Shown in pieces: positions 34,618 to 64,000 of a stretch of DNA of 64,000 nucleotides. The notes beneath the pieces are model-generated. The model was not told the DNA's origin, searched no databases, and saw nothing but the letters and a program-made list of their open reading frames with translations. Source of the DNA: Victivallaceae bacterium (GTDB lineage Bacteria > Verrucomicrobiota > Lentisphaeria > Victivallales > Victivallaceae). The DNA is taken from positions 465-64,464 of the forward strand of contig JAZODE010000147.1 in NCBI GenBank assembly GCA_045596885.1, in the 5' to 3' direction. The first letter of the stretch is position 1; each line of letters starts with the position of its first letter. The position numbers and the translations under genes were made by a program.

Positions 34618-35064
34618 TCAGACACGCCGACGCTTCGGAGGACGGCAACCGTTGTGCGGCACCGGGGTGATATCTTTGATGACGGTCACTTCGAGTCCGG
34701 CGAGGATCAATCCCCGGACAGCGGATTCACGACCGGCACCGGGTCCTTTGATGCGGACTTCAACTTCCTTCATACCGTAAAGCTGGGCTTTTTTGGCGGC
34801 GTCGCCGGCGATCACCTGAGCAGCATAAGCGGTGCTCTTACGGGAGCCTTTGAAACCATTCTTACCGCCGGTAGACCAGCAAAGCACATTTCCGTGCATA
34901 TCAGTAAAGGTGACTTTGGTGTTATTGAAGGTCGCCAGAACATAGACAATACCATTCTGAATATGGCGACCACTCTTGGCGCGCTGTTTGGGAGCAGCAG
35001 CCTCAGCGGCCTGCTCTGCCGGAGCTTCAACAGCGGCAACATTCTTTTCCAATTCTTCTGCCAT
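34618..35064 (-). CDS. rpsK: 30S ribosomal protein S11 (with about 20-aa Ala/Glu-rich N-terminal extension)
   Basis: Core [12 protein letters not shown]...[11 protein letters not shown]...[13 protein letters not shown]. Confidence 0.97.
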
Positions 35065-35103
35065 AATATAAAATTCCTGAGATTATTAACTGTTACCCAA
35101 AAC

Positions 35104-35508
35104 TTACGCCTTAGCGCTGGCGGCAAGACGACGCTGAGTTTTGTCGCGGATAGCACCGATGGTGACGCGCTTACCTTTACGGGTACGGGCATTGGTTTTG
35201 GTGCGCTGTCCGCGGCAGGGAAGTTTCCGGCGATGACGGATTCCGCGGTAGCAGTTGATCTGCTGCAGACGACGGATGTCAGCATCAACAGCACGGCGAA
35301 GGTCACCCTCCACCATGATATCATCCTGCAGGATCTTGGTGATTTTGGCAATCTGCTCAGGGGTGAGTTCGCTTGCCTTGATATTGCGGTCGATACCGAC
35401 CTTCTCAATGATTTCCAGCGCCTTGGTGGGGCCGATCCCGTACAGATAACGCAGAGAATACTCAACGCGCTTGTTGCCGGGGATATCCACTCCGATAATA
35501 CGTGGCAT
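35104..35508 (-). CDS. rpsM: 30S ribosomal protein S13
   Basis: N-terminus MPRIIGVDIPGNKRVEYSLRYLYGIG and segment CYRGIRHRRKLPCRGQRTKTNART. Confidence 0.97.
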   Translation of the reverse strand: MPRIIGVDIPGNKRVEYSLRYLYGIGPTKALEIIEKVGIDRNIKASELTPEQIAKITKILQDDIMVEGDLRRAVDADIRRLQQINCYRGIRHRRKLPCRGQRTKTNARTRKGKRVTIGAIRDKTQRRLAASAKA

Positions 35509-35571
35509 TTTTGGATTCCTGTTTTTTAATGTTATTAACGTTTGAAAATACTTGACACTTTACCAGATGAA

Positions 35572-36010: not shown

Positions 36011-36039
36011 TTGACAAAAACAGGAGTCTGCTGTATATT
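36011..36039 (+). promoter_or_regulatory. Putative promoter of the first prepilin-like gene
   Basis: TTGACA (36011-36016), 17 nt, TATATT (36034-36039). Confidence 0.6.
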
Positions 36040-36095: not shown

Positions 36096-36941
36096 ATGAA
36101 ATCTCTTTCCTCTTTTCGTCGTTTCAATCAGTTTACTCTCATTGAGTTATTGGTGAAAAGATCACATCTCTGCTGTGATCGTGTTTATGGCAAAGAAGAA
36201 TGTCTTTCACCTGCCCATGGGCAGGTGAAGCTGTACAGCTTCACCTTAATAGAGCTTCTTGTAGTAATCGCCATCATTGCAATACTTGCTGCCATGCTGC
36301 TGCCCGCGCTGCAGCAGGCAAGGGACCGGGCAATGTCAACAACCTGTCTTAACAACCTGAAAGAGTTGAACTCCGCAGTATTCCACTACGCTGACGACAA
36401 CAAAGGTTTTGCTCCCACAGGAAAATATACCTCAAATTACATTTTCAGCGATATCCGTAACTTTGGCACTATCGCCTATTATGTGGGAGTCAGAGTCACT
36501 GACCACTCAGCCCTCATGCCAAAACTGGCGATTTGTCCTAAGGGGCGCAGAGACTTCAAAGCTCCTCCCAATGCTGAAAGAACCACCTCCAACACACCCA
36601 ATTTCAGCTATGCCATGAATTACTTCACCAGCACAGCAACAGGGCAATATTTCCAAAAGTTCGGAACCGGAGGCCACTTGAGTACCCGTTTGAGCTGGGG
36701 AGAGATCGGCGATTTCCGTTGTCTGGGGCTTGAGCCACCTTCATCGCTGACAGGAGGAGGCGGTATCAGCGGTCTGCACTGTATCTCATATCGCCACCCT
36801 CTGTACAAAACTACCAATGTGGCTTTTGCAGATGGTCACGCAGGAACCATCCAAACCGGATTTCTTCACCGCTACATCAGCGGATGGAACGGCAGTTACG
36901 ATTACACCTTCTTTTTCAGAGACAATTATTCTGCTAATTAA
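36096..36941 (+). CDS. Prepilin-type N-terminal cleavage/methylation domain protein, H-X9-DG (DUF1559-like) family, with duplicated FTLIELLV motif
   Basis: [28 protein letters not shown] signature and C-terminal RH...VAFADGH. A second, truncated FTLIELLV lies 36 codons upstream in frame. Confidence 0.85.
36160..36180 (+). repeat. Inverted repeat (7-bp stem) in the spacer of prepilin-like gene 1
   Basis: Stem gatcaca / tgtgatc with loop tctctgc. Confidence 0.7.
36207..36246 (+). repeat. Two overlapping perfect palindromes (22 nt and 24 nt) sharing the arm aggtga
   Basis: Palindrome 1 is tcacctgccca|tgggcaggtga (36207-36228). Palindrome 2 is aggtgaagctgt|acagcttcacct (36223-36246). Because they share an arm, their hairpins are mutually exclusive. 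Confidence 0.85.
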
Positions 36942-36952
36942 ACCTCTTCAAT

Positions 36953-37000
36953 TTCGCCGCTTTGTATGACCGATCAAATGCGGCGAAAATATTTTTTTTA
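36953..37000 (+). terminator. Rho-independent terminator after prepilin-like gene 1
   Basis: Stem ttcgccgc / gcggcgaa followed by a run of 8 Ts (aatatttttttt). Confidence 0.7.
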
Positions 37001-37041
37001 CTTGAAAAACTGGAAAGCTCACAAAAGATAAGGAGGTTCTT

Positions 37042-37980
37042 ATGTTTACGAAAAAAAGCCTTCCCACTGACAACATTTCCGGCAATTATTACAGACCATT
37101 GAAACAAACGACCTTTACCTTGATCGAATTATTGGTTACTACTGCACAACAGAACTGTCTTTTTAAAACAAAAAACAACACATCCTTACGCCCGGCAGGG
37201 CGCACTTCACGTTTGCCGCAGGCAAACTCTTCACACCTTCACATCTTCACTCGATCAGCGTTCACGCTGATCGAACTATTGGTTGTAATTGCCATCATCG
37301 CTATCCTTGCCGCCATGCTGCTGCCCGCTCTGCAGCAGGCACGGGAACGCGCCCGCACCTCCAAATGTTCTGCCAATCTGCTGCAGTTCGGGACTGCCGT
37401 CAATATGTATGCCGATGATTACAATGACTGCGTTCCGGGAGTCCGTACCAGCAACTCAAGCTACACAGGTCCCGAAGACTCCCCATGGGCAACCTCTATG
37501 GACCTTATTCCGGGCAAAGAATACGGAACTCTTGCACCTTATCTGGGGGCAGTGGGCGAGAAACAGCACATCGGCGCTATGACACCTCAACTGCGTTCCC
37601 GTTTTGCCTGTCCCTCTGAAAACAACAATGCCTGGTTCTGTTATTCTTATGTTTACAACGCCTGGTTCTGGATCCATGGCTCAACTCCAGCCCAGCTTGC
37701 CTCCCGCAAACGGTCACGCTTCACCAAACCGGCAAGAAAAATGCTCATCATGGACTGCTACCAAAATACCAATACGCCTTATATAAATTATTCTCACGGT
37801 GCAAAGATCCCCTACCGCCACAACAATACCAACGGCGTTCTTTTTGCTGACGGACATGTTAAATTTCTGCACAAAGGTCAAATCAGCCACAATACTGCGG
37901 GGTATCCCGGCTACCACCCCGATCCTACCGGATTGGTATTCTGGACGCCTGAAGGGAAAAAAGATTTCTATCTCTACTGA
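37042..37980 (+). CDS. Prepilin-type N-terminal cleavage/methylation domain protein, H-X9-DG (DUF1559-like) family, with duplicated FTLIELLV motif
   Basis: Strong AAGGAGG SD 5 nt upstream of the ATG at 37042. The first FTLIELLV is at codon 25. The full signature [28 protein letters not shown] starts at codon 74. C-terminal [13 protein letters not shown] is an exact H-X9-DG. Confidence 0.88.
37251..37274 (+). repeat. Perfect 10-bp inverted repeat across the second cleavage-site codons of gene 2
   Basis: Stem tcgatcagcg / cgctgatcga with loop ttca, covering codons (T)RSAFTLIE. Smaller hairpins lie at 37189-37202 and 37212-37226. Confidence 0.85.
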
Positions 37981-38030
37981 GACAAATTTTCCGAAAACAC
38001 ACGGTCCATAAATAATAAGGAAGACAACAA

Positions 38031-40493
38031 ATGAAAAAACTTCTATTCTTTTCTGCGCTGTTAGCAGCAACTCTGCTTTCAGCCATGCCGGTCGTCCGAA
38101 ACGGCAAATCCGACTATGTCATTGTCATTGCTCCCAATGCTCCTCAAGAGGCTGTCCGGGCAGCGGCAAATGATCTGCGGACCTACATTTTCAAGGCAAC
38201 AGGAGCAAAGCTCCCCATTGTGAAGCCTGCCCAAAAGGGCAAGCGGCCTGCCTTCATGCTGGGATTCATCAAAGTTGACAAGCCGGAAGGATTCGTGGTC
38301 AAAACACAGGGAAAAGATATCCACATTTCCGGAAATGACACAAACGGCAATGTCTACAATAACCACTGGGCAAGCGGTGCCCGGGTGGGCACCTGGTTCG
38401 GCGTGGCGGACTTTCTGGAAAAACAGCTGGGTATACGCTGGTTCATGCCGGGGGACTTGGGCGAATATGTCCCCAAACGCACCAACTGGGATGTCCCGGC
38501 TCTCGATTACGCCGATGCCCCCCGTTTTGAAAGCCGCCGTCTGGGCTACCAGACCCGCAAAGGCATGTCTCCCAAACAAGTGCGCGAAGCCCAGCTTTTC
38601 ATGCGCCGCAACCGTGTGGGACAGGCAAACTCCTGGTGCGCCTGGCACAGCTGGCTCCACTACCTCAAAAAAGAGGATTATTTTGACAAACATCCTGAAT
38701 ATTTCGCCTATGTGGGTGGACGCCGTCTTGCCACCGATTCTCTCGGGCACGGACTCCAGATCTGTACCACCAATCCCGAGGCGCTGGATCAGCTGGCTGA
38801 AAATATGATGAAGGACCTTGCCAAACGCAAACAGCGTTCCATGATGCCTCTTTCCCCCAATGACGGCGGTAAACTTTGTGAATGCGCCAACTGTCTGGCA
38901 CTTGATGACGGAGTCCGTCCCGACGGCAGCCGTATCATGACCACCCGCATGATGACCTACGCCAATGAAATGGCAAAACGGATCGTCAAAAAGTTTCCCG
39001 ACCAGACCTTCGGCATGTATGCCTACTCCTTCTACAAAGAGGGTGTCAGCAAAGTCAAGGTCCATCCCAATATCACCATTATGGAGGTCCTCAACGACAG
39101 CGGTCTGAGTTACTATAACCCCGGCACCCGGAAAGCACATCTGAAAAACCTCAAAGCATGGCGCAGCGTTCTGAATAAACTTTATTACTACGCGACTCCC
39201 GAAGGCATGGGCAATCTGGAACTCCCCTGCGGACAGTTCAAAAACATCAGCATGCTTTTTGACAACCTTTACGCCGCCGATGTGACCGGTATCGATATGA
39301 ACAACACCACCAGCTACACCGCTTCCGCCCTGAACAACTACTTTTTTCTCAAATATTCCTGGGGCAATATCAAGGATAGAGAAAAGTTCTACGCTGAGAC
39401 GCTCCGTGACTGCTACGGTAAGATTGCCGCCCCCGTTATGAGAGGTTACTTTGATGCTATTGAAAAGCGTTTCACTGAATACGCCTCAGGCGGATTGACA
39501 GAAAATATCAGTTTGGGATACATCCCCCGCTATCCCGGAGTCCTGACCAAAGTTTACCCCGGACTGGCTGAAGAGTGGCTCCCCAAATTGAAGGCTGTTC
39601 TTGCAAAAACCACCGACAAAGGACAGAAAGCGCGGCTGCAGCTTGCCATTACCAATCTGGAGTACTGCCAGGTAACTGTTCAGCTTTACGCCATTGCCGC
39701 CAAACTTGTCACCAGCCCGCGTCCTGATGCAAAACTTGCGGCGAAAGCTCTGAAACTGACTCAGCTCCGTAAAGCTCTTCTCAGCAAGACCCGCTCTTTC
39801 CCCGGCAACTCCCCTGCCAACACAGCCAGAACTGAACGCACCTTCCGCATTCCCTTTGATGCCAATGTGTTCTCCTTTATGATGGCTGCCAACGCCCGCA
39901 AGAGTGCAGCGACCACCCGTATTGCGGAGCTCCCCAAGTTGGATGGTAAACTGGATGAAGCTCTCTGGAAAAAGATCAAACCTCTGCGTATCGAACTTGA
40001 CAAAGACACTGCCGATCCCCACAAAGTCGGAGCCAATGTTTACCTTGCCCGTCACAACGGCGACCTTTATCTGGGTATCCATTGTGAAGAACCTCTGATG
40101 AACAAAAATCAGGATTCCGGTCTCCGTAAGGACAGCCCTGTTTGGGATGAAAACAGTATCGATCTTTTCTTTTCCACTCCTGACAAAAAATGTTTCCAGC
40201 TGGTCTTCAACTCTCTGGGAACTGCCAGAAGTTTCAGCAAAGAAGGCAAAAAGAATCTCCCCTGGGATGCCAAAGCGGTTGTTAAAACCTTCCGCGGGAA
40301 AAATTTCTGGAGCGCTGAGATCAAGCTGCCTCTGAATTCCATGTACAAAGGTAAAGAATTCATCGGCGACATCTGGGGGATGAACTTCTGCCGCCACAGA
40401 TGTACCGTTCACCCTGACGAATACACCTGCTGGAGTCCTACTTTCGGCGATTTCCACCGTCCTGAGCGTTTCGGCAGGATCATCATAAAGTAA
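38031..40493 (+). CDS. Secreted DUF4838-family protein with C-terminal carbohydrate-binding (CBM9-like) region
   Basis: Signal peptide MKKLLFFSALLAATLLSA, a DUF4838-like N-terminus (RNGKSDYVIVIAPNAP) and a CECANCLALDD cysteine motif. Confidence 0.8.
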   Translation: MKKLLFFSALLAATLLSAMPVVRNGKSDYVIVIAPNAPQEAVRAAANDLRTYIFKATGAKLPIVKPAQKGKRPAFMLGFIKVDKPEGFVVKTQGKDIHISGNDTNGNVYNNHWASGARVGTWFGVADFLEKQLGIRWFMPGDLGEYVPKRTNWDVPALDYADAPRFESRRLGYQTRKGMSPKQVREAQLFMRRNRVGQANSWCAWHSWLHYLKKEDYFDKHPEYFAYVGGRRLATDSLGHGLQICTTNPEALDQLAENMMKDLAKRKQRSMMPLSPNDGGKLCECANCLALDDGVRPDGSRIMTTRMMTYANEMAKRIVKKFPDQTFGMYAYSFYKEGVSKVKVHPNITIMEVLNDSGLSYYNPGTRKAHLKNLKAWRSVLNKLYYYATPEGMGNLELPCGQFKNISMLFDNLYAADVTGIDMNNTTSYTASALNNYFFLKYSWGNIKDREKFYAETLRDCYGKIAAPVMRGYFDAIEKRFTEYASGGLTENISLGYIPRYPGVLTKVYPGLAEEWLPKLKAVLAKTTDKGQKARLQLAITNLEYCQVTVQLYAIAAKLVTSPRPDAKLAAKALKLTQLRKALLSKTRSFPGNSPANTARTERTFRIPFDANVFSFMMAANARKSAATTRIAELPKLDGKLDEALWKKIKPLRIELDKDTADPHKVGANVYLARHNGDLYLGIHCEEPLMNKNQDSGLRKDSPVWDENSIDLFFSTPDKKCFQLVFNSLGTARSFSKEGKKNLPWDAKAVVKTFRGKNFWSAEIKLPLNSMYKGKEFIGDIWGMNFCRHRCTVHPDEYTCWSPTFGDFHRPERFGRIIIK

Positions 40494-40523
40494 GGAGTGC
40501 TGATCCGTTTTTCAGCATAGTGA

Positions 40524-40567
40524 AAAACTCCGCTGCGGTAAATTTTCCACAGCGGAGTTTTTTGATT
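40524..40567. terminator. Bidirectional rho-independent terminator
   Basis: 12-bp stem aaaactccgctg / cagcggagtttt, with an A-run before and a T-run after, between convergent genes. Confidence 0.8.
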
Positions 40568-40589
40568 TGATTCTCTTGAGAAAACTGTA

Positions 40590-41360
40590 TCAGGGCTCCC
40601 AGATGAAATCGTTGTCAGAACGGCGCATGATCACCAGTTCGGGAGTCTCTTTGAGAATAGGCAGCACTGTGGCACGGAGTATTTCCGCATCCACCAGACG
40701 GCTGAAGCCCAGCCCGACTTTGCCCCATTTGAGACCGCCCGCAGCTTCGACCACATGTTCCATATCCACAAAGTAATCCTTCTTGGGGGAGTGCCAGTGG
40801 TGCTGGATGGTACGGACATTGCCGTCGTAATCGTGGATGTAAAGTTCACTGGTATTTTTGGTGTGAAGTCCGGGAACACGGGCTTCGATCTCAAGAGCGT
40901 GGATACAGGTGTTGCAGGTGAAATTGGTTCCCAGAAACAGGATGTGTCCGCCGTTGCGCATCAGTTTGCCGTAGGGGGAATCGGGAGACCAGGGGGTGTT
41001 GATGTCAATATGTCCTTCGGTAAAAAACTTTGCCTTGGGACCGAAAGCACAAATAGAGTGCACAGGATGAAGACTGCGGATCACACCTTCACGTTTGCGG
41101 AAGACATTGGCAAGAGTTCCCACGGTGCAAGGGGTATTCTGCACATCAAAGACCGGCTGGTCGGGATTCACATTGCCCCCCACGGTGGACATCATCAAAG
41201 TTCCTTCGGGTCCCAGCACCTCAAGCAGAGCGTCGATCACTGTGTCAGCGCCCCCTTCGACGGGGCCGACGCGGCGGAGAGAGGAGTGGGTCAGCAGACT
41301 CATGCCGGGCTTGATGCCCAGAGCTTTGAAATCATTTACAAGAGAGTTGAAATCAGCCAT
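40590..41360 (-). CDS. AAC(3)-family (aminoglycoside 3-N-acetyltransferase-like) acetyltransferase
   Basis: N-terminal family pattern LGIKPGMSLLTHSSLRRVGPVEGGADTVIDALLEVLGPEGTLMMST. Start MADFNSL; the track ORF begins 6 codons upstream. Confidence 0.85.
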   Translation of the reverse strand: MADFNSLVNDFKALGIKPGMSLLTHSSLRRVGPVEGGADTVIDALLEVLGPEGTLMMSTVGGNVNPDQPVFDVQNTPCTVGTLANVFRKREGVIRSLHPVHSICAFGPKAKFFTEGHIDINTPWSPDSPYGKLMRNGGHILFLGTNFTCNTCIHALEIEARVPGLHTKNTSELYIHDYDGNVRTIQHHWHSPKKDYFVDMEHVVEAAGGLKWGKVGLGFSRLVDAEILRATVLPILKETPELVIMRRSDNDFIWEP

Positions 41361-41381
41361 TTGTTTTCTTTCCTTCACATT

Positions 41382-42164
41382 TTATTTATCGAGATACTTA
41401 TCCATAATATCGCGGATCTCACGCACGGTGGATTCTTCAAGATAGTCCACGGAACTAAGATTTTTCATCAGATAATCGTCATCGCCGGGTTCCATTCCGG
41501 GAACGAATTTCATAGCGGACTTGCGCTGCCGGTAGCCGTTGACGATATGGTAGTCAAAGGGCATTCCGGGGATCAGCAGCCGGGGCAGATCGGGGGTTTT
41601 GAAGGCAGGCCCCAGAGCGACCATGATCTTGATCCTGCCTGCTGCCTGCTCGTGGAGTTCCATGATGCGTTTGAAATCAAACTGATATCCGGGAAGCAAA
41701 GCTCCGGTCAGAATAAATTCTATGCCGAGATCAACTGCCTGTTCCAGAGCCTTTGACTGATCTTTCACAGATTCAAAGCCCCGGTGCAGAGTAAATCTGC
41801 GTCCCGGAACCTTGTCGATGATCTGTTTCATCCGTTTGACATCCAATTCCCCTTCGGGGGTGACGATACCGCACATGAAGCCTTCGGCACCGGCATCGTA
41901 AAGAGCTTCAGTATCTCTGAGCATCACTTTGAACTCTTCATCGGTATAAAGGGGATCTCCGGAACGGGGACGGATCATAACAAAAATACCAAGTCCGATA
42001 CCGGTCGCCTTTTTGACTTCCATCATCTCCTTCACCAGTCCGTAACTGGGGGTAAGAGCTCCTTCAGAGGGACTCACATAAAGTTCGACACGATCAGCAC
42101 CGCCCCGCCATGCGGCAAGAGCATCGGCGACATTTCTGGCGCCTACTTCAAGTTCATATTTCAT
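41382..42164 (-). CDS. cutC: CutC-family copper homeostasis protein
   Basis: N-terminus LEVGARNVADALAAWRGGADRVELYVSPSEGALTPSYG resembles the CutC TIM barrel. Confidence 0.85.
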   Translation of the reverse strand: MKYELEVGARNVADALAAWRGGADRVELYVSPSEGALTPSYGLVKEMMEVKKATGIGLGIFVMIRPRSGDPLYTDEEFKVMLRDTEALYDAGAEGFMCGIVTPEGELDVKRMKQIIDKVPGRRFTLHRGFESVKDQSKALEQAVDLGIEFILTGALLPGYQFDFKRIMELHEQAAGRIKIMVALGPAFKTPDLPRLLIPGMPFDYHIVNGYRQRKSAMKFVPGMEPGDDDYLMKNLSSVDYLEESTVREIRDIMDKYLDK

Positions 42165-42196
42165 TTTTTTACTCCATTGCTATATGACATCTTCAA

Positions 42197-42225
42197 AATA
42201 TAACACATCTCTGAGGCTTTTTCAA
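42197..42225 (-). promoter_or_regulatory. Putative promoter of cutC / AAC(3)-like genes
   Basis: Minus strand TTGAAA, 17 nt, TATATT. Confidence 0.5.
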
Positions 42226-42239
42226 GGAAAAAGGCTGGT

Positions 42240-42977
42240 TCAATTCAATGTGTTCTTTAATATCCGGAAAAAATTTTTGAGCACCTTGAGAACAAATACA
42301 GTGTAAGCTGTTACAGGATTCTGTCCGTAGCGGCATTTTACTTTAAGCTCATCTTTCAGACACTGCAGCACATATCTGTCAGAGAGTCCATCCTCAAGAT
42401 AGAACGCCACGGGCTTTGGCACATACAGCGGCTTTATTCCTTCTTTATTGACGGCACGGTACATGAAATCGTAGTCACCCAACAAACGGAAACTTTCATC
42501 GTATGTCCCGATCCTTTCGTAAATACTGCGGGGAACAAACATGGAAGGATGAGGTGCAAACGCCCCTATGAAGCGCTTATTTTCACGGAATCCTCTGACC
42601 AGCCCCAAATGCTGATAGTGTACATCCCCCCAGAAAATGCGATCAAAGGCCCCATGGGTGCGAAATGCCTCGGCAACGATTTCCAACGCTCCGGGCAAAT
42701 AGCGGTCCCCTGAATTTATCATGCCGATCACATCACCGGTACAATGGGCGATGCCTTTATTCATGGCATTGTAGATGCCGCTGTCTTTTTCGCTGACAAA
42801 GAACGCCAGGCGGGAAGCATATTTCTGAATGATCTCAGTTGTGCCGTCCTCAGAAGCTCCGTCGATCACAACGTACTCCAATTCAAAACCGCTGCCCTCC
42901 TGTCCCAGAACGGAGTTCAAGGTTTCTTCAATGTGTTCCCGGTCATTTCTGACTATTGTAACAATAGAAATCTTCAT
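42240..42977 (-). CDS. Family 2 glycosyltransferase
   Basis: N-terminus ISIVTIVRNDREHIEETLNSVLGQ, plus DGASEDGT and a DxD-like region. Confidence 0.88.
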   Translation of the reverse strand: MKISIVTIVRNDREHIEETLNSVLGQEGSGFELEYVVIDGASEDGTTEIIQKYASRLAFFVSEKDSGIYNAMNKGIAHCTGDVIGMINSGDRYLPGALEIVAEAFRTHGAFDRIFWGDVHYQHLGLVRGFRENKRFIGAFAPHPSMFVPRSIYERIGTYDESFRLLGDYDFMYRAVNKEGIKPLYVPKPVAFYLEDGLSDRYVLQCLKDELKVKCRYGQNPVTAYTVFVLKVLKNFFRILKNTLN

Positions 42978-42996
42978 ATAAACTTTTTCTCAATTA

Positions 42997-43025
42997 AAAT
43001 GACCGGGAAAACTCCCGGTCATTTC
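42997..43025 (-). terminator. Rho-independent terminator after hpf
   Basis: Stem tgaccggga / tcccggtca with loop aaac, flanked by A/T runs. Confidence 0.7.
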
Positions 43026-43099
43026 AAAGTCCCTGCCGGTTTTCCTGTTACCGGCAAATCAAAGGACTGCGAATTATTGATAAATCACCTGTCGGGGTA

Positions 43100-43453
43100 T
43101 CACTCCTCGCCAGCCATTGCGGCTTCTGCGTGGGCGTGCTCCAAATCTCTCAAAGCCACTCCCCTGTGATCACGGACGCGATCGGTGAGCACATAGAGCT
43201 GATGTCCGACCTTGTCAACAGCTGCGTCAAAGGAACGGTAGAGATCAAAGCTCTCGACCTCAGCCTTGAGGGTATGATACTTGCAATTCAAGACCAGCGT
43301 TGTTGTAAAACGGTTCTTTTCGCGACCGAAAACAACGGAAGCGGAGGTAACTTTCAAAGGAGTAGCGGAAACCAGGGACTTAAGCTGATCGGTAACATAA
43401 CCGTAGATAGCCTGAGTGATGCCGAACTGTCTGCCGATGATTGAAATGTTCAT
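43100..43453 (-). CDS. hpf: Ribosome hibernation promoting factor (short HPF/RaiA family)
   Basis: Family-typical N-terminus MNISIIGRQFGITQAIYGYV. 117 aa, downstream of lptB. Confidence 0.9.
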   Translation of the reverse strand: MNISIIGRQFGITQAIYGYVTDQLKSLVSATPLKVTSASVVFGREKNRFTTTLVLNCKYHTLKAEVESFDLYRSFDAAVDKVGHQLYVLTDRVRDHRGVALRDLEHAHAEAAMAGEE

Positions 43454-43502
43454 GATTACTCTCCTGTATTTTAACGCCGGAACCTGTTTCCGGGTCTATG
43501 GA

Positions 43503-44249
43503 CTATAAAGCAAAGTCACCGCCGAGATAAACCTCCCGAGCCTTCGGATCATTGATCAACGAATCGCTTGTGCCCTCCACTAAGATTTTACCGTCACACA
43601 TTATATACGCCCGATCCACGACCTTCAGGGTATCCCGCACATTATGATCGGTGATCAGGATACCGAGGTTGCGTTCGGCTTTGAGTTTCAAGATGATTTC
43701 CCGCACATTGCTCACGGCAAGGGGATCAACGCCGCTGAAAGGTTCGTCAAGCATGATGAAAGCGGGATTTGTCACCATGGCGCGGGTGATTTCAAGACGG
43801 CGTCTTTCACCGCCTGAAAGAGTCATTGCCTTCTGCTTACGGAGCTTGGTCAACCCCAGATCCTCCATCAAGGTTTCGCAGCGCTCTTTGCGTTCAGCAC
43901 CGGAAATATCAAGGGTCTGGAGAATCGCCATAATATTTTCTTCAACAGTAAGCTTGCGGAAGATGGAAGGCTCCTGAGCCAAATACCCCATTCCCATACG
44001 GGCGCGGAGATTCATGGGCATTTGCGTGACATCCACATCGCGGAATTTGACAAATCCTGCATCGGGACGGATCAATCCCATGACCATATAAAAGCTGGTT
44101 GTCTTGCCGGCTCCATTGGGACCAAGGAGTCCAACGACCTCTCCGGCTCGAACATTGATAGAGACGCCCCGGACTACCTGGCGGCCGCGATAGATCTTGA
44201 CCAAGCCTTCAGCCTCGACTAACATCTCATTTTTCTGGTATTCATTCAT
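43503..44249 (-). CDS. lptB: LPS export ABC transporter ATP-binding protein LptB
   Basis: Walker A GPNGAGKTT, signature LSGGERRR and ITDHNVRDTL. Confidence 0.92.
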   Translation of the reverse strand: MNEYQKNEMLVEAEGLVKIYRGRQVVRGVSINVRAGEVVGLLGPNGAGKTTSFYMVMGLIRPDAGFVKFRDVDVTQMPMNLRARMGMGYLAQEPSIFRKLTVEENIMAILQTLDISGAERKERCETLMEDLGLTKLRKQKAMTLSGGERRRLEITRAMVTNPAFIMLDEPFSGVDPLAVSNVREIILKLKAERNLGILITDHNVRDTLKVVDRAYIMCDGKILVEGTSDSLINDPKAREVYLGGDFAL

Positions 44250-60725: not shown

Positions 60726-63641
60726 TTATTTTTTCTGAAGCAGCATAACAGGCAGATAGATGCCGCCGCCTCTGGCAAAGTCGTTGACTTTAACAGTCAG
60801 ATTGATCTTCTCTCCGGCTTTCAATCCTGCCGGAAGTGTAACAAAGATCGGCTCTTTCCATAAATTTATATTGCCGGCCCGGGAACCGATAAGTTTACCG
60901 TTGACATAGATCCAACCGGATTCATCAATGCCTTCAAAAAAGAGGCAGTGGGTATTTTTTCCGGTCGTGACGGGCATGGTATACTCCAGATGATACCAGG
61001 CGTCGCCGTCAAAGTTGCGGTAGCCCTGATTGTCCCAGTAGCCGATGTTGATCTTTTTCCATTTGGAGTAATCTTTCAGAGCAAAATATTTCTTTTGTGT
61101 CCCCACCACTTCTTTGTCGGTCACAAAGTCCCATTTTTCCAAAGGCAAAGTGGCGATGATCTTATAATTTTTTTTCAGACCGCTCTGGGTGCGATGGCGC
61201 TTGTAATAAGTTTCAGCGTGGTGGAGAAACTGCCTTTTGATGCTTGATTCAGCTCTGTTGGTGGATGTGAGATGCCATTTGATCATGCTCTTGGCATAGG
61301 CGCAGTAGGCGGCAACGACAGAGTGGAGCTTTTTGTAAGTTTCATCGTTGGGCGTATTCTGGAACGCCATTGCAGCATCACAGCTCCGGGCATAATGGCG
61401 TGTCAGTTCCAAATGGAGCTTTTTACGGTGCAGAACTTTAAGGACACGGGCATTGCCCCGGGCAAGTTTTTCCGCCTTCCGGAGGATCGAAGTCAATTTC
61501 TGCAGGACCTGCGGTGTAAAATTGGGCAGATCCCGACGGCCGTACCGGTGGTCATTTTCTTTGTTGAGGAAGACTGATTTGAAAAGCTCATAATATCCGA
61601 TCATGGTTTGCCCGGCAGGACCGTAAAGTTTATCAAAGTAATCCTTTTTGAATTCCTTTTCATCAAACCAGCAATCCCACAGCACCCGGCATCCCAGATA
61701 CTTTATGTAATCATTAAAATCCCAGGGATTGATGTATTCCGCCATATTGCCGGTGATCCCCAACCGGGTGTAGAAACGGTAATCCGCCACAATGGTATGA
61801 TCCAACTGATAACGAGAGTTGAAAGATGTATAGGTATAAGGATGGATATTGATACCGGCATTGAGATCATGCGCCCAGAAAGCCAGATTTTTGGAACCTG
61901 CCGACTCTTCGGCTTTTTTGCCGTAAACCGGGGTGATACAATAATTGTAAAAGATATTGGGCAGAGGCTTCTGGGTAAAGGGACGGCGGGCACTCTGGGC
62001 GTAAGCCATGGTACGCAGGACTTTGTCCTTGTATCCCCTTCTGTCCAGTTCCCGGCGCAGAGCGTTTGCCATGTAGGTCAGACGGTCAGCCATGCAGTCA
62101 GGAGTGTAACCCTGAGGAGGATCCAGTTTGCTGCAGTTGTCACACTGACACCAGCGGCGGGCACCGTCTTCAGGAGAGAGCATCAGATGGTCTGCCATAG
62201 GATAGAGTTTGAAATACCGTTCCGCCTCATCTGCGATAACTTTGATGACCTCAGGGTTGGTGGTGCAGAGCTGGGCGCGTTCCCACACCCATTTTTTCGT
62301 GTCACGCTGATAGCAGAAGTACTCAGGATGACTCTTAAAATACTTGGAAGGTGGAACCAGACGGTGAAAATTGTGTCCGGAAATACCGGGGATATTGCGT
62401 GAGACCCCACCGCGTTTTCCATAAAATTCATCGACTCGTTTCAAAGCCCGTCCATGTCCCAAACGCTTGGCATGCCGTTTGTTGTAAAGGTTGTTAAATT
62501 CTCCCGTCAGGCGGTTTTTCACAGCCCAGTCAGCAATCACATAGGTTTCATCAAGACCGAGGCGGTGGAGACCGCAGTAGTTGACTTCACGGATCTGCAT
62601 GAGTGCTTTTTCATGGTCTTCAAACTCAGGCAGTTCAAATTTGCTGATCCGGGGGACGATGGTATATTCAGGGAAAGGCCCGAAAAAGCGCACGCCGCAT
62701 GCCTTTTCCAAAAAATCGTACACGCCGTAAAGCAGGGCTCTTTCGGTATTGCCGGAAACTGTGATGGTCCTGCCGTCGCCTTTGAGAGTGAATTCTTCAA
62801 ACTTCGCCTTGACGCCGTCGGTGCGAAGCACAAAAGCCGGAACACTTTTCCCCCCGGGAACGATCTTGAAGTCGGCTCCTGTGACCTGTTTCAAATATTT
62901 TGCAAGTTCAGAAGCGGCAAAACGCTCTGTTGCTGAAGGGGCGGCTTTCAGATTGATGGTAAAAGCGCTCTTTCCCTTTTCAGCGATGAGGAATTTTTTG
63001 CTGCCCTTTTTATCAAAGGAGTAAGGCTTGTGTACAGGCGATGCCGGTTTGAGTTTGCCGCTCCAGTCGAGGACAGGGGCGGTCACATCTGAAGCGGGAA
63101 GCAGCCCGATATAACTGACTTCCCCGTCACAAAGTTTTCTTTCAGGAGAGATCCACAATTCAAGGAGTTTCCCCCCGGGGCGGAGTGTCAGATCTTTCTG
63201 TTTGCCGGAAACACGGAAATTGCCCCCCAACGCGCCCATATAACTGTAATTCTGGCGCCGGGTATCCAGCCGGAAAGTGTGGAACTGATCCCCTTTGAGT
63301 TCGACGATGGTGTAGAACCTTTGCGGACTCTTGCCGGGATCCTGTTTCCGCATGGCAATACGGAAAAGCTGGTTCTTTTTGTTGCCGACGGCGCGGAGTT
63401 TAAGTTCAATATAAGGTTTACCGGCAAGATCCATGGGGGATTTAAGAATAAAAACCACCCGGCTGTCATTCTTCGGGAACGACATTTTCAAGACACCGGC
63501 TTTGCTGTCGTGTCTGATCTTTGCGTTGCCGACAACTTTGATGTTTTTTCCGGGAGGGGAGGAAAAGTTTTCAATGGGCTGCGGCGCAGCTCCCAGCAGC
63601 ATCGCAGCTGCCAGAGAAAAAATAATTACAACTCTTTTCAT
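60726..63641 (-). CDS. Secreted DUF4838-family protein with extra N-terminal domain and C-terminal galactose-binding-like (GH2 sugar-binding type) domain
   Basis: Signal peptide MKRVVIIFSLAAAMLLGAA, a CQCDNCSKLD cysteine motif like the 38031 paralog, and a C-terminal DGDAWYHLEY...FFEGIDESGWIYVNG segment. Confidence 0.8.
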   Translation of the reverse strand: MKRVVIIFSLAAAMLLGAAPQPIENFSSPPGKNIKVVGNAKIRHDSKAGVLKMSFPKNDSRVVFILKSPMDLAGKPYIELKLRAVGNKKNQLFRIAMRKQDPGKSPQRFYTIVELKGDQFHTFRLDTRRQNYSYMGALGGNFRVSGKQKDLTLRPGGKLLELWISPERKLCDGEVSYIGLLPASDVTAPVLDWSGKLKPASPVHKPYSFDKKGSKKFLIAEKGKSAFTINLKAAPSATERFAASELAKYLKQVTGADFKIVPGGKSVPAFVLRTDGVKAKFEEFTLKGDGRTITVSGNTERALLYGVYDFLEKACGVRFFGPFPEYTIVPRISKFELPEFEDHEKALMQIREVNYCGLHRLGLDETYVIADWAVKNRLTGEFNNLYNKRHAKRLGHGRALKRVDEFYGKRGGVSRNIPGISGHNFHRLVPPSKYFKSHPEYFCYQRDTKKWVWERAQLCTTNPEVIKVIADEAERYFKLYPMADHLMLSPEDGARRWCQCDNCSKLDPPQGYTPDCMADRLTYMANALRRELDRRGYKDKVLRTMAYAQSARRPFTQKPLPNIFYNYCITPVYGKKAEESAGSKNLAFWAHDLNAGINIHPYTYTSFNSRYQLDHTIVADYRFYTRLGITGNMAEYINPWDFNDYIKYLGCRVLWDCWFDEKEFKKDYFDKLYGPAGQTMIGYYELFKSVFLNKENDHRYGRRDLPNFTPQVLQKLTSILRKAEKLARGNARVLKVLHRKKLHLELTRHYARSCDAAMAFQNTPNDETYKKLHSVVAAYCAYAKSMIKWHLTSTNRAESSIKRQFLHHAETYYKRHRTQSGLKKNYKIIATLPLEKWDFVTDKEVVGTQKKYFALKDYSKWKKINIGYWDNQGYRNFDGDAWYHLEYTMPVTTGKNTHCLFFEGIDESGWIYVNGKLIGSRAGNINLWKEPIFVTLPAGLKAGEKINLTVKVNDFARGGGIYLPVMLLQKK

Positions 63642-63668
63642 GTCAGATCCTTTCTTTCAGTAATTGAT

Positions 63669-64000
63669 TCAGTTATATCCGAGAGTTCCATTCTCAAGCA
63701 TACAGTGCATGAGTGCCCCCAGTGTTGCAGATGTCTTTCTTGAATAATTCCCGTGTTTTCCCCGGGTAATGACAGCAGCGTGTCCGTCAAGGAAAAATCC
63801 GCCCCCCTGCCGTCCGTTCTTATGCCGGAACGAGAGAGTTCCTTTTTTAGCCTTATCTTCCTGGGTCTGCAGTGTAGGATACATTCTGGGATAGCGGCTT
63901 TGAGTTTTTGCCCATCTGCTGTCAGCAAGAATAATAAATTCATCTGTGGTAACGGGCATATTTTTCACTTTACGCCAATGGTTGAATCTTTTTGCATCAA
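63669..64000 (-). CDS. H-X9-DG prepilin-like protein, C-terminal part (N-terminus outside window)
   Basis: The frame stays open to nt 64000. The C-terminal motif LSFRHKNGRQGGGFFLDGHAAVI matches the [YF]RH...DGH ends of the genes at 36096 and 37042. Confidence 0.7.
   Translation of the reverse strand, partial: DAKRFNHWRKVKNMPVTTDEFIILADSRWAKTQSRYPRMYPTLQTQEDKAKKGTLSFRHKNGRQGGGFFLDGHAAVITRGKHGNYSRKTSATLGALMHCMLENGTLGYN

Follow-up and report, generated by a model that had tools for sequence, protein, structure and literature searches.

Genes for prepilin-like proteins of the DUF1559/H-X9-DG type stand directly upstream of genes for large exported proteins, most often glycosidase-like proteins with a DUF4838 domain, in a Victivallaceae genome, and the pairing with DUF4838 genes is a genuine recurrent cassette that occurs far above chance. 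Two examples lie in a stretch of 64,000 nucleotides of this genome (G000:C147:465-64464), which we refer to as the window and to which positions refer unless a contig is named. The genome comprises 3.69 Mb in 156 contigs and is 83% complete, and loci near-identical to those of the window are found in Lentisphaeria/Victivallaceae metagenome-assembled genomes whose sources are ruminant and other animal guts. We call the prepilin-type DUF1559/H-X9-DG gene P and the DUF4838 gene D, so that the window holds a P1-P2-D cassette on the plus strand (36096-40493) and a P-D cassette on the minus strand (64000-60726).

Enrichment and polarity of the pairing

Open reading frames (ORFs) from the whole genome were assigned to families by jackhmmer and motif search, giving 86 D and 146 P genes, and were placed on a greedy map of 2743 longest, non-overlapping ORFs. 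A P gene is located immediately upstream and on the same strand for 33 of the 82 D genes that have an upstream neighbour, compared with 78 of 2384 other genes (Fisher odds ratio (OR) 19.9, p = 4e-25). Shuffling of the labels 5000 times gave 3.1 +/- 1.7 P-then-D pairs with a maximum of 10, against the 33 observed. The preliminary description of this DNA had asked if the adjacency could follow from the sheer number of DUF1559 genes; at ~11 times the shuffled expectation, it exceeds what that number predicts. The order is also polar, with P-then-D found 33 times and D-then-P 8 times, and the gap from P to D is mainly 4-62 nt, with a median of ~27 nt. A walk along close same-strand genes places 42 of the 86 D genes in P-headed directons.

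A wider class of exported partners

The same description took DUF4838 specifically to be the partner of P, which was not borne out, as 47 genes of other kinds, each at least 700 aa long, come after P. In total, the genome contains ~80 modules in which P is followed by a large protein, and DUF4838 is the commonest of at least 10 unrelated partner families. Non-D genes located directly after P (78 in all) are long, with a median of 849 aa versus 339 aa for other genes; 60% of them reach at least 700 aa versus 8.7% of others, and 59% have a signal-peptide-like start versus 14.5% of others. They split into several paralogue groups, with Pfam matches that are GH42-like, GH123, GH16+CBM6, GH127-like, beta-helix/lyase-like or CBM4_9, or with no match, and those of at least 700 aa, most of which bear signal peptides, show the same range of GH42-, GH123-, GH16-, GH127-, beta-helix- and carbohydrate-binding module (CBM)-type matches or none. 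Among large genes, 78 of 171 with a signal-peptide-like start are P-headed compared with 20 of 167 without one (OR 6.2, p = 6.5e-12). The partner class of P is large exported proteins in general, not DUF4838 as such.

A comparison of the cassettes with polysaccharide utilisation loci (PULs) had also been drawn, and it fits the regulators found near them: an AraC-family regulator gene (C147:65303-66208, plus strand) is divergent from the P gene of the second window cassette, and LacI regulators head at least nine other modules. Many of the modules adjoin such a sugar-type regulator, and GFO/IDH/MocA and xylose-isomerase-like genes are also common neighbours. Separately, at least eight secretin-domain ORFs are present in the 3.7-Mb genome, on C14, C10 (~95-97 kb), C87 (~10.7-13 kb), C107 and C85, and the secretin pairs on C10 and C87 are within a few kb of P-DUF4838 clusters.

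The two cassettes of the window

The features of the two cassettes are listed below, with the minimum free energy (MFE) of predicted RNA folds and with RBS denoting a ribosome-binding site; D820 and D971 are the two D genes.

36011..36039, plus strand: promoter-like site upstream of P1 (TTGACA, 17 nt, TATATT; 11/12 consensus matches, by consensus scan only)
36096..36941, plus strand: P1, pilin-like prepilin-type gene, 281-aa ORF (PF07963 N_methyl 24.2 bits; GspG and pilin N-terminal matches)
36952..36999, plus strand: intrinsic-terminator-like hairpin and U-run between P1 and P2 (MFE -17.1 kcal/mol, z = -4.3, then AAAAUAUUUUUUUU)
37042..37980, plus strand: P2, prepilin-type DUF1559/H-X9-DG gene, 312-aa ORF (PF07596 41.2 bits, PF07963 32 bits)
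37981..38030, plus strand: P2-D spacer, 50 nt, with RBS AAGGAAG at 38017-38023; unstructured (MFE -3.4 kcal/mol, z = -0.69)
38031..40493, plus strand: D820, exported DUF4838 glycosidase-like protein (PF16126 E 1.7e-45, 156 bits)
40522..40570, plus strand: strong intrinsic-terminator-like hairpin and U-run after D820, closing the P2-D unit (fold of 40494-40575: MFE -34.7 kcal/mol, z = -7.3)
60726..63641, minus strand: D971, exported DUF4838 glycosidase-like protein (PF16126 E 3.3e-37, 128.8 bits; NAGLU_N, GH20b and GH2_N matches)
63642..63668, minus strand: spacer from the second-cassette P to D971, 27 nt, with RBS AAAGGA; unstructured
63669..64000, minus strand: third P gene, C-terminal part, H-X11-DG (the full 317-aa gene extends to G000:C147:65086, outside the window)

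The ORF listing and Pfam scans recovered every ORF given in the preliminary description, and its P-to-D spacings of 50 nt and 27 nt agree with ours. Its H-X9-DG label is exact for the gene at 37042, but the other two P genes read H-X11-DG. The promoter region of P1 is arranged divergently, back to back with the rpmJ-rpoA operon. In P1 the leader holds an in-frame repeat insertion, the mature part begins at the second FTLIELLV (~residue 49) and the H-X11-DG motif is C-terminal. A Pfam scan of P1 returned no PF07596 match, and P1 is a DUF1559-family member only by paralogy, as detected with jackhmmer. P2 has its mature start at ~residue 74, an exact H-X9-DG and AAGGAGG ahead of its ATG. No Pfam match was obtained for the window fragment of the third P gene (63669-64000) alone; the complete ORF (G000:C147:64133-65086) matches N_methyl and DUF1559, scoring 25.0 bits for PF07596 against a cut-off of 23.3.

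The gene beyond D820 (40590-41378, minus strand) is convergent and of the Antibiotic_NAT family. It belongs to a run of genes convergent with the cassette, and seemingly unrelated to it, at 40590-44249 (minus strand), namely the aminoglycoside-3-N-acetyltransferase-family gene, cutC, GT2 and an ABC ATPase. An ORF of 291 aa at 34654-35529 (plus strand) was rejected as a gene and is a shadow of the minus-strand rpoA/rpsK/rpsM ribosomal-protein operon.

Transcription of the cassettes

Both P-D spacers of the window (P2-D820 and third P-D971) are free of terminator-like elements. Genome-wide, such elements occur at 3 of 80 P-enzyme junctions versus 37 of 80 sites in the 140 nt that follow the enzyme gene. 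Contigs assembled from two gut metatranscriptomes span the P2-D junction, one at 37899-38095 with 0 mismatches and the other at 37861-38095, and none of the RNA-library contigs lies over the end of P1 or the P1-P2 spacer. RNA-library depth is zero across 36686-37047, over which the DNA run is even; as a whole, the RNA runs give patchy coverage and the DNA run an even one. P and enzyme genes are probably co-transcribed. Because a terminator-like hairpin follows P1, the first cassette probably consists of P1 and then P2-D, and the transcription units are likely P1 by itself, P2-D820 and P-D971. Co-transcription, for which RNA-seq had been suggested as a check, is therefore supported between P2 and D by the bridging contigs and the terminator-free spacers, but probably does not extend to P1, which is separated from P2 by its own terminator-like hairpin.

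A conserved pilin stem and a variable head

Profile matches of P to major pilins and pseudopilins are restricted to the N-terminal helix (PF07963, TIGR02532, GspG/PilA), and all three P genes of the two cassettes match both PF07963 and TIGR02532. For mature P2, an AF2 model built from a 62-sequence alignment (pLDDT 90.2) consists of a 50-residue alpha-1 helix and a beta-sheet head, with the H-X9-DG in the last beta-hairpin. The 24 best VIA-align matches of this model are all pilins or pseudopilins (PilA4 Z = 5.0, EpsG Z = 4.6, PulG), at Z values of only 3-5. Foldseek against the PDB gave weak matches only, to the N-terminal helix, and the neighbours of the model in AlphaFold DB are DUF1559 and type II secretion system (T2SS) "protein G" models. 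On the strength of this model, P is predicted to have a type IV pilin fold.

In 135 paralogues, residues 1-28 of the mature protein are 95.5% identical, with F1, E5 and P22 essentially invariant and most positions of the FTLIE...P22 consensus conserved at 99% or more, whereas the P heads are 24% identical. Given that the third codon positions of the stem are only 52.5% identical, the uniformity of the stem protein is attributable to selection and not to gene conversion. The pattern is that of a common assembly stem under strong selection, with a head free to diverge. The motif that gives the family its name is less constant: among 143 P genes, 59 have an exact H-X9-DG, 32 have another spacing (7-13 residues) and 52 have no motif, and the TIGR04294 score is 17.2, below the cut-off of 19.

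Insertions of one or two in-frame repeat elements between duplicated FTLIELLV-coding motifs of the leader occur in 42 of the 147 P genes; those of the window are at 36132-36263 and 37114-37284. The elements form three to four recurring spacer families with motif-to-motif periods of ~36, 49-52, 56 and 64 codons, and some further P genes begin within a repeat element (leader MLHTAEPCFIRSA). As all of them are upstream of the presumed cleavage site, they would leave with the leader. At 37229-37409 of the window, the depth of DNA-metagenome contigs rises from ~12 to ~1800 over the conserved alpha-1N-coding segment; contigs break at this segment, and such a repeated segment therefore fragments assemblies of these genomes.

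Machinery for prepilin maturation and assembly is present. There is a single Peptidase_A24 prepilin peptidase gene (C54) and a canonical gspD-E-F-G-H-I-J-K operon on C85, with more secretins and PilB/PilT-type ATPases elsewhere.

The DUF4838 enzymes

DUF4838 is the catalytic domain of the CAZy families GH163 (BT1035, an endo-acting N-glycan enzyme) and GH185 (Sp_0475, a 6-sulfo-GlcNAcase) (PMC10570127), and the gene downstream of P therefore encodes a glycosidase-type enzyme. Both D proteins exceed the PF16126 cut-off of 26.6 bits (156 and 128.8). They had been described as putative glycan-active exoproteins; the domain is already that of characterised glycosidases (GH163/GH185, PMC10570127). 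By a heuristic call, the N-termini of D820 and D971 are both Sec-type signal peptides (K/R-rich, hydrophobic, Cys-free and with no lipobox), as had been claimed.

Also confirmed are the C-[EQ]-C-x-x-C-x-x-L-D motif common to the two proteins and the difference between their C-termini. The three Cys of the motif and a fourth, upstream Cys are invariant in 33 homologues, a conservation that suggests a structural metal site. In D820 these are residues 245, 283, 285 and 288 (C...C-x-C-x-x-C), located in the TIM-barrel domain. The words "zinc" and "cysteine" are absent from the text of the GH185 paper, which mentions no metal site. The C-terminus of D820 is CBM9-like (Pfam CBM9_1 E = 0.001 across the full model; Foldseek matches to CBM9 structures with TM 0.54-0.58), versus a GH2_N galactose-binding-like domain in D971 (E = 3.8e-7), which has an additional N-terminal domain of ~200 aa. 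The complete architecture of D820 is a signal peptide, a GH20b-like N-domain, the Cys4-bearing TIM barrel, a helical bundle and the CBM9-like C-terminus. Its AF2 model (pLDDT 80.7) matches GH115 best in Foldseek (8e-18), followed by GH138, GH20, GH84 and GH89, and its best structural neighbour, 4C90, is also the one named in the GH185 paper. The D paralogues are only ~20-25% identical and probably have diverse specificities. The genome has 86 DUF4838 genes in total, and counts across its genus run from 0 to >50; the expansion is very large and also very uneven.

Distribution and novelty

In genomes of the same genus or order, P is directly upstream at 16 of 28 sampled DUF4838 loci. Among the best-scoring DUF4838 loci phylum-wide, which were sampled as genome-search loci with 1.5-kb flanks, P is upstream at 4 of the 13 loci that belong to the order and at 1 of the 15 that do not; a single-protein query yielded 10 related loci. 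Counts of P and D are correlated across 21 related genomes (rho = 0.75), which are relatives and not independent samples. No D-rich genome is P-poor, but some related genomes combine >100 P candidates with 0-1 DUF4838 genes. Genomes with expanded P sets belong mainly to this same order and class.

DUF1559 as a whole is a very large family, with 238,820 cluster representatives (50% identity) at E <= 1e-10. Among Planctomycetes, R. baltica has 74 copies (PMC2754498) and P. limnophila 68 (PMC10632474), and published work assigns them no function. Literature on DUF1559, H-X9-DG, Lentisphaerae prepilins, Kiritimatiella pseudopilins and Victivallales pilins yielded no account of the pairing. New here are the whole-genome statistic, the large-exported partner class, the one-stem/many-heads measure, the terminator and RNA evidence, and the orthologue turnover described below.

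Proposed role of P

The reading that we favour, tentatively and as a possibility only, is that P proteins are accessory pilins which join a common T2SS or type IV filament and help to export the co-expressed enzyme or keep it at the surface. P proteins would be accessory (pseudo)pilin subunits matured by the single prepilin peptidase, and the common stem would insert them into one shared filament machine, most likely the GspD-K T2SS or a type IV pilus. Each P would be produced only upon induction of its own operon, and its variable head would aid passage of the co-expressed enzyme through the outer membrane or its placement there, acting as a pseudopilus secretion adaptor or as a surface-fibre tether. 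The relation between P and enzyme would be one of operon-level co-expression, with no obligate one-to-one pair. We regard as rather unlikely a more specific form of this proposal, in which each glycan-induced operon gives its own head to one shared machine, so that the substrate reprograms the filament and the head is a specific enzyme adaptor to the secretin or to surface-fibre display. If true, this would be a modular answer to T2SS substrate recognition and a first function for the DUF1559/H-X9-DG family.

A number of observations weigh against such a role or against the data behind it. The gene map includes some shadow ORFs. The RNA evidence is weak, consisting of assembled contigs at very low depth from libraries that may contain DNA, and DNA carry-over may be the source of the contigs. 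The T2SS operon already supplies its own GspG-K. At position -1 before F1, the 137 P genes have Ala in 49 cases, Ser in 38 and Gly in one. The idea that the missing Gly disqualifies P as a prepilin was rejected, as the canonical GspG of the genome (G000:C85:59328-59759 = L099:5328-5759, minus strand; TIGR01710 143 bits) also lacks it; because this GspG carries Asn at -1, the non-Gly residue in P counts for little, and the prepilin peptidase of the lineage probably has a relaxed or unusual -1 specificity. As many as 44 of the 86 D genes are outside any P-headed directon, 34 of them with a signal peptide, and P in cis is therefore not required.

The sequences of P also track those of their enzymes loosely. 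For the 33 P-D pairs, head-to-head distances of P correlate only modestly with the distances between the paired D proteins (Mantel r = 0.27, p = 4e-4), and co-duplication alone would yield such a mirror-tree signal. Nearest neighbours agree in 10 of the 33 P-D pairs versus ~1 expected, and some cassettes have therefore been duplicated as units. One of these is the second window cassette, given that the closest paralogue of D971 (on C42, 36% identity) comes after the closest paralogue of D971's own P (44% identity). Clustering of the partner class on a tree built from 143 P heads, which would favour cognate binding, is weak: there are 85 changes compared with 94.1 +/- 3.0 in shuffles, and for the D partner alone the figures are 27 and 29.7 +/- 1.6. 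The upstream neighbour of D820 varies among orthologues of 73-97% identity and may be P2, P1, another D or neither: the arrangement is P1-P2-D at 97%, P1 orthologue-D without P2 at 82% and D-D at 79%, with no P or D upstream at 73%. At locus L080, the P1 orthologue (79% identity) is directly before the D orthologue and P2 is absent; P2 may be a recent addition here or may have been lost elsewhere. Strict cognate pairing is unsupported for the D820 cassette, and the turnover of partners among close orthologues speaks against strict one-to-one pairs. The dedicated partnership suggested in the preliminary description is thus doubtful: P is missing in cis from half of the D genes, subfamilies of P show little correspondence with the enzyme family and the neighbours of orthologues change.

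Alternative explanations

The co-expression, pilin fold and shared stem data fit equally well a model of glycan-capturing pili, in which lectin-like heads bind polysaccharide instead of the enzyme and a retractable pilus or fibre draws the substrate to the co-expressed enzyme. Cellulose-binding pilins in Ruminococcus, Fibrobacter and Caldicellulosiruptor are a precedent, the genome has several PilB/PilT-type ATPases and many secretins, and the weak tracking of enzyme families and the turnover of partners are easier to understand if P reads features of the glycan and not the surface of one enzyme. Under this model, however, P genes beside the same enzyme family should cluster, which they barely do; moreover, the P head has no detectable similarity to CBM or lectin folds, and the enzymes already bear CBMs of their own. 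We consider this explanation unlikely, while giving it some weight. An explanation that dispenses with the filament is that unpolymerised P in the inner membrane acts as an envelope anchor or holdase, keeping the large enzyme tethered or chaperoned in the periplasm while it breaks down imported glycans there. Planctomycetes have been proposed to digest glycans in such a "selfish" periplasmic manner. The non-canonical -1 residue could signify little or no cleavage, half of the enzymes do without a cis-located P, and no SusC/SusD-type Pfam match was seen among the scanned cassette-flanking genes, a genome-wide search not having been made. However, E5 and P22 are invariant and the whole alpha-1N is extremely conserved, features of filament assembly rather than of a simple anchor, and the canonical GspG is likewise non-Gly at -1, so that an anchor or holdase seems improbable to us.

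The same low standing is given to the explanation that involves no coupling beyond shared regulation, in which cassettes duplicate, P hitch-hikes, aided by recombination at its conserved 5' ends and by the repeats inserted there, and its general role in the envelope is unrelated to its neighbour. The cassettes duplicated as units (the 10 of 33 agreeing neighbours and the sister cassette on C42), the hotspot formed by repeats at the FTLIELLV-coding site in 42 of 147 P genes and the fast turnover of the neighbour upstream of D are all in keeping with it. Against it, the partners of P come from at least 10 enzyme families with no relation to one another, which means that the association arose on many occasions. 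The P-first order, short gaps, lack of internal terminators and confinement to large signal-peptide partners are also kept between paralogues of only 20-25% identity, which points to selection on the arrangement itself.

Comparison with known systems

Similar to T2SS pseudopilins (GspG major, GspH-K minor) and type IV pilins, P has a class III-type N-terminus with F1 and E5, a hydrophobic alpha-1 with P22 and a predicted pilin fold, and its genome contains the prepilin peptidase, GspD/E/F and other filament machinery. Unlike the T2SS pseudopilins, P has 146 paralogues versus ~5, located outside the gsp operon and each fronting a gene for an exported enzyme; the P head, at ~185 aa, is about twice the size of that of GspG and has no solved homologue, and -1 is not Gly. 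The tips of T2SS pseudopili reportedly contact substrates. In relation to the DUF1559/H-X9-DG family of the PVC group (PF07596 "SBP_bac_10", TIGR04294), P2 and the third P pass the PF07596 threshold, but many P copies read H-X10-13-DG or are without the motif, TIGR04294 is below its cut-off, and the published accounts searched do not include the neighbourhood rule seen here, with P upstream of large exported glycan enzymes.

The modules share with Bacteroidota PULs, including the context of the GH163 enzyme BT1035, a substrate-type grouping of regulator, small non-catalytic partner and exported enzymes, as well as the DUF4838 domain itself. They differ in that the non-catalytic partner is a pilin-fold protein and the enzymes are Sec-type without a lipobox. 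Type IV pilin-family proteins have also been linked, by genetics or by function, to glycan binding and to glycoside hydrolase loci in Ruminococcus albus, Fibrobacter succinogenes and Caldicellulosiruptor. These degraders of plant polysaccharides have one or a few pilins, with one pilus locus by an enzyme cluster, in contrast to ~80 P-enzyme bicistrons with a shared stem and variable heads.

Significance

DUF1559/H-X9-DG proteins are among the largest families of bacterial paralogues that lack an assigned function, and a strong, polar neighbourhood rule makes the question of their role experimentally approachable. If the heads are enzyme- or glycan-specific adaptors, they would represent a third way of polysaccharide foraging beside Sus-type PULs and cellulosomes, and would have a bearing on how the T2SS recognises its substrates. 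For gut ecology, the cassettes draw attention to a very large GH163/GH185-like repertoire in Victivallaceae (86 genes here), the enzymes of which are probably aimed at host or complex N-/O-glycans.

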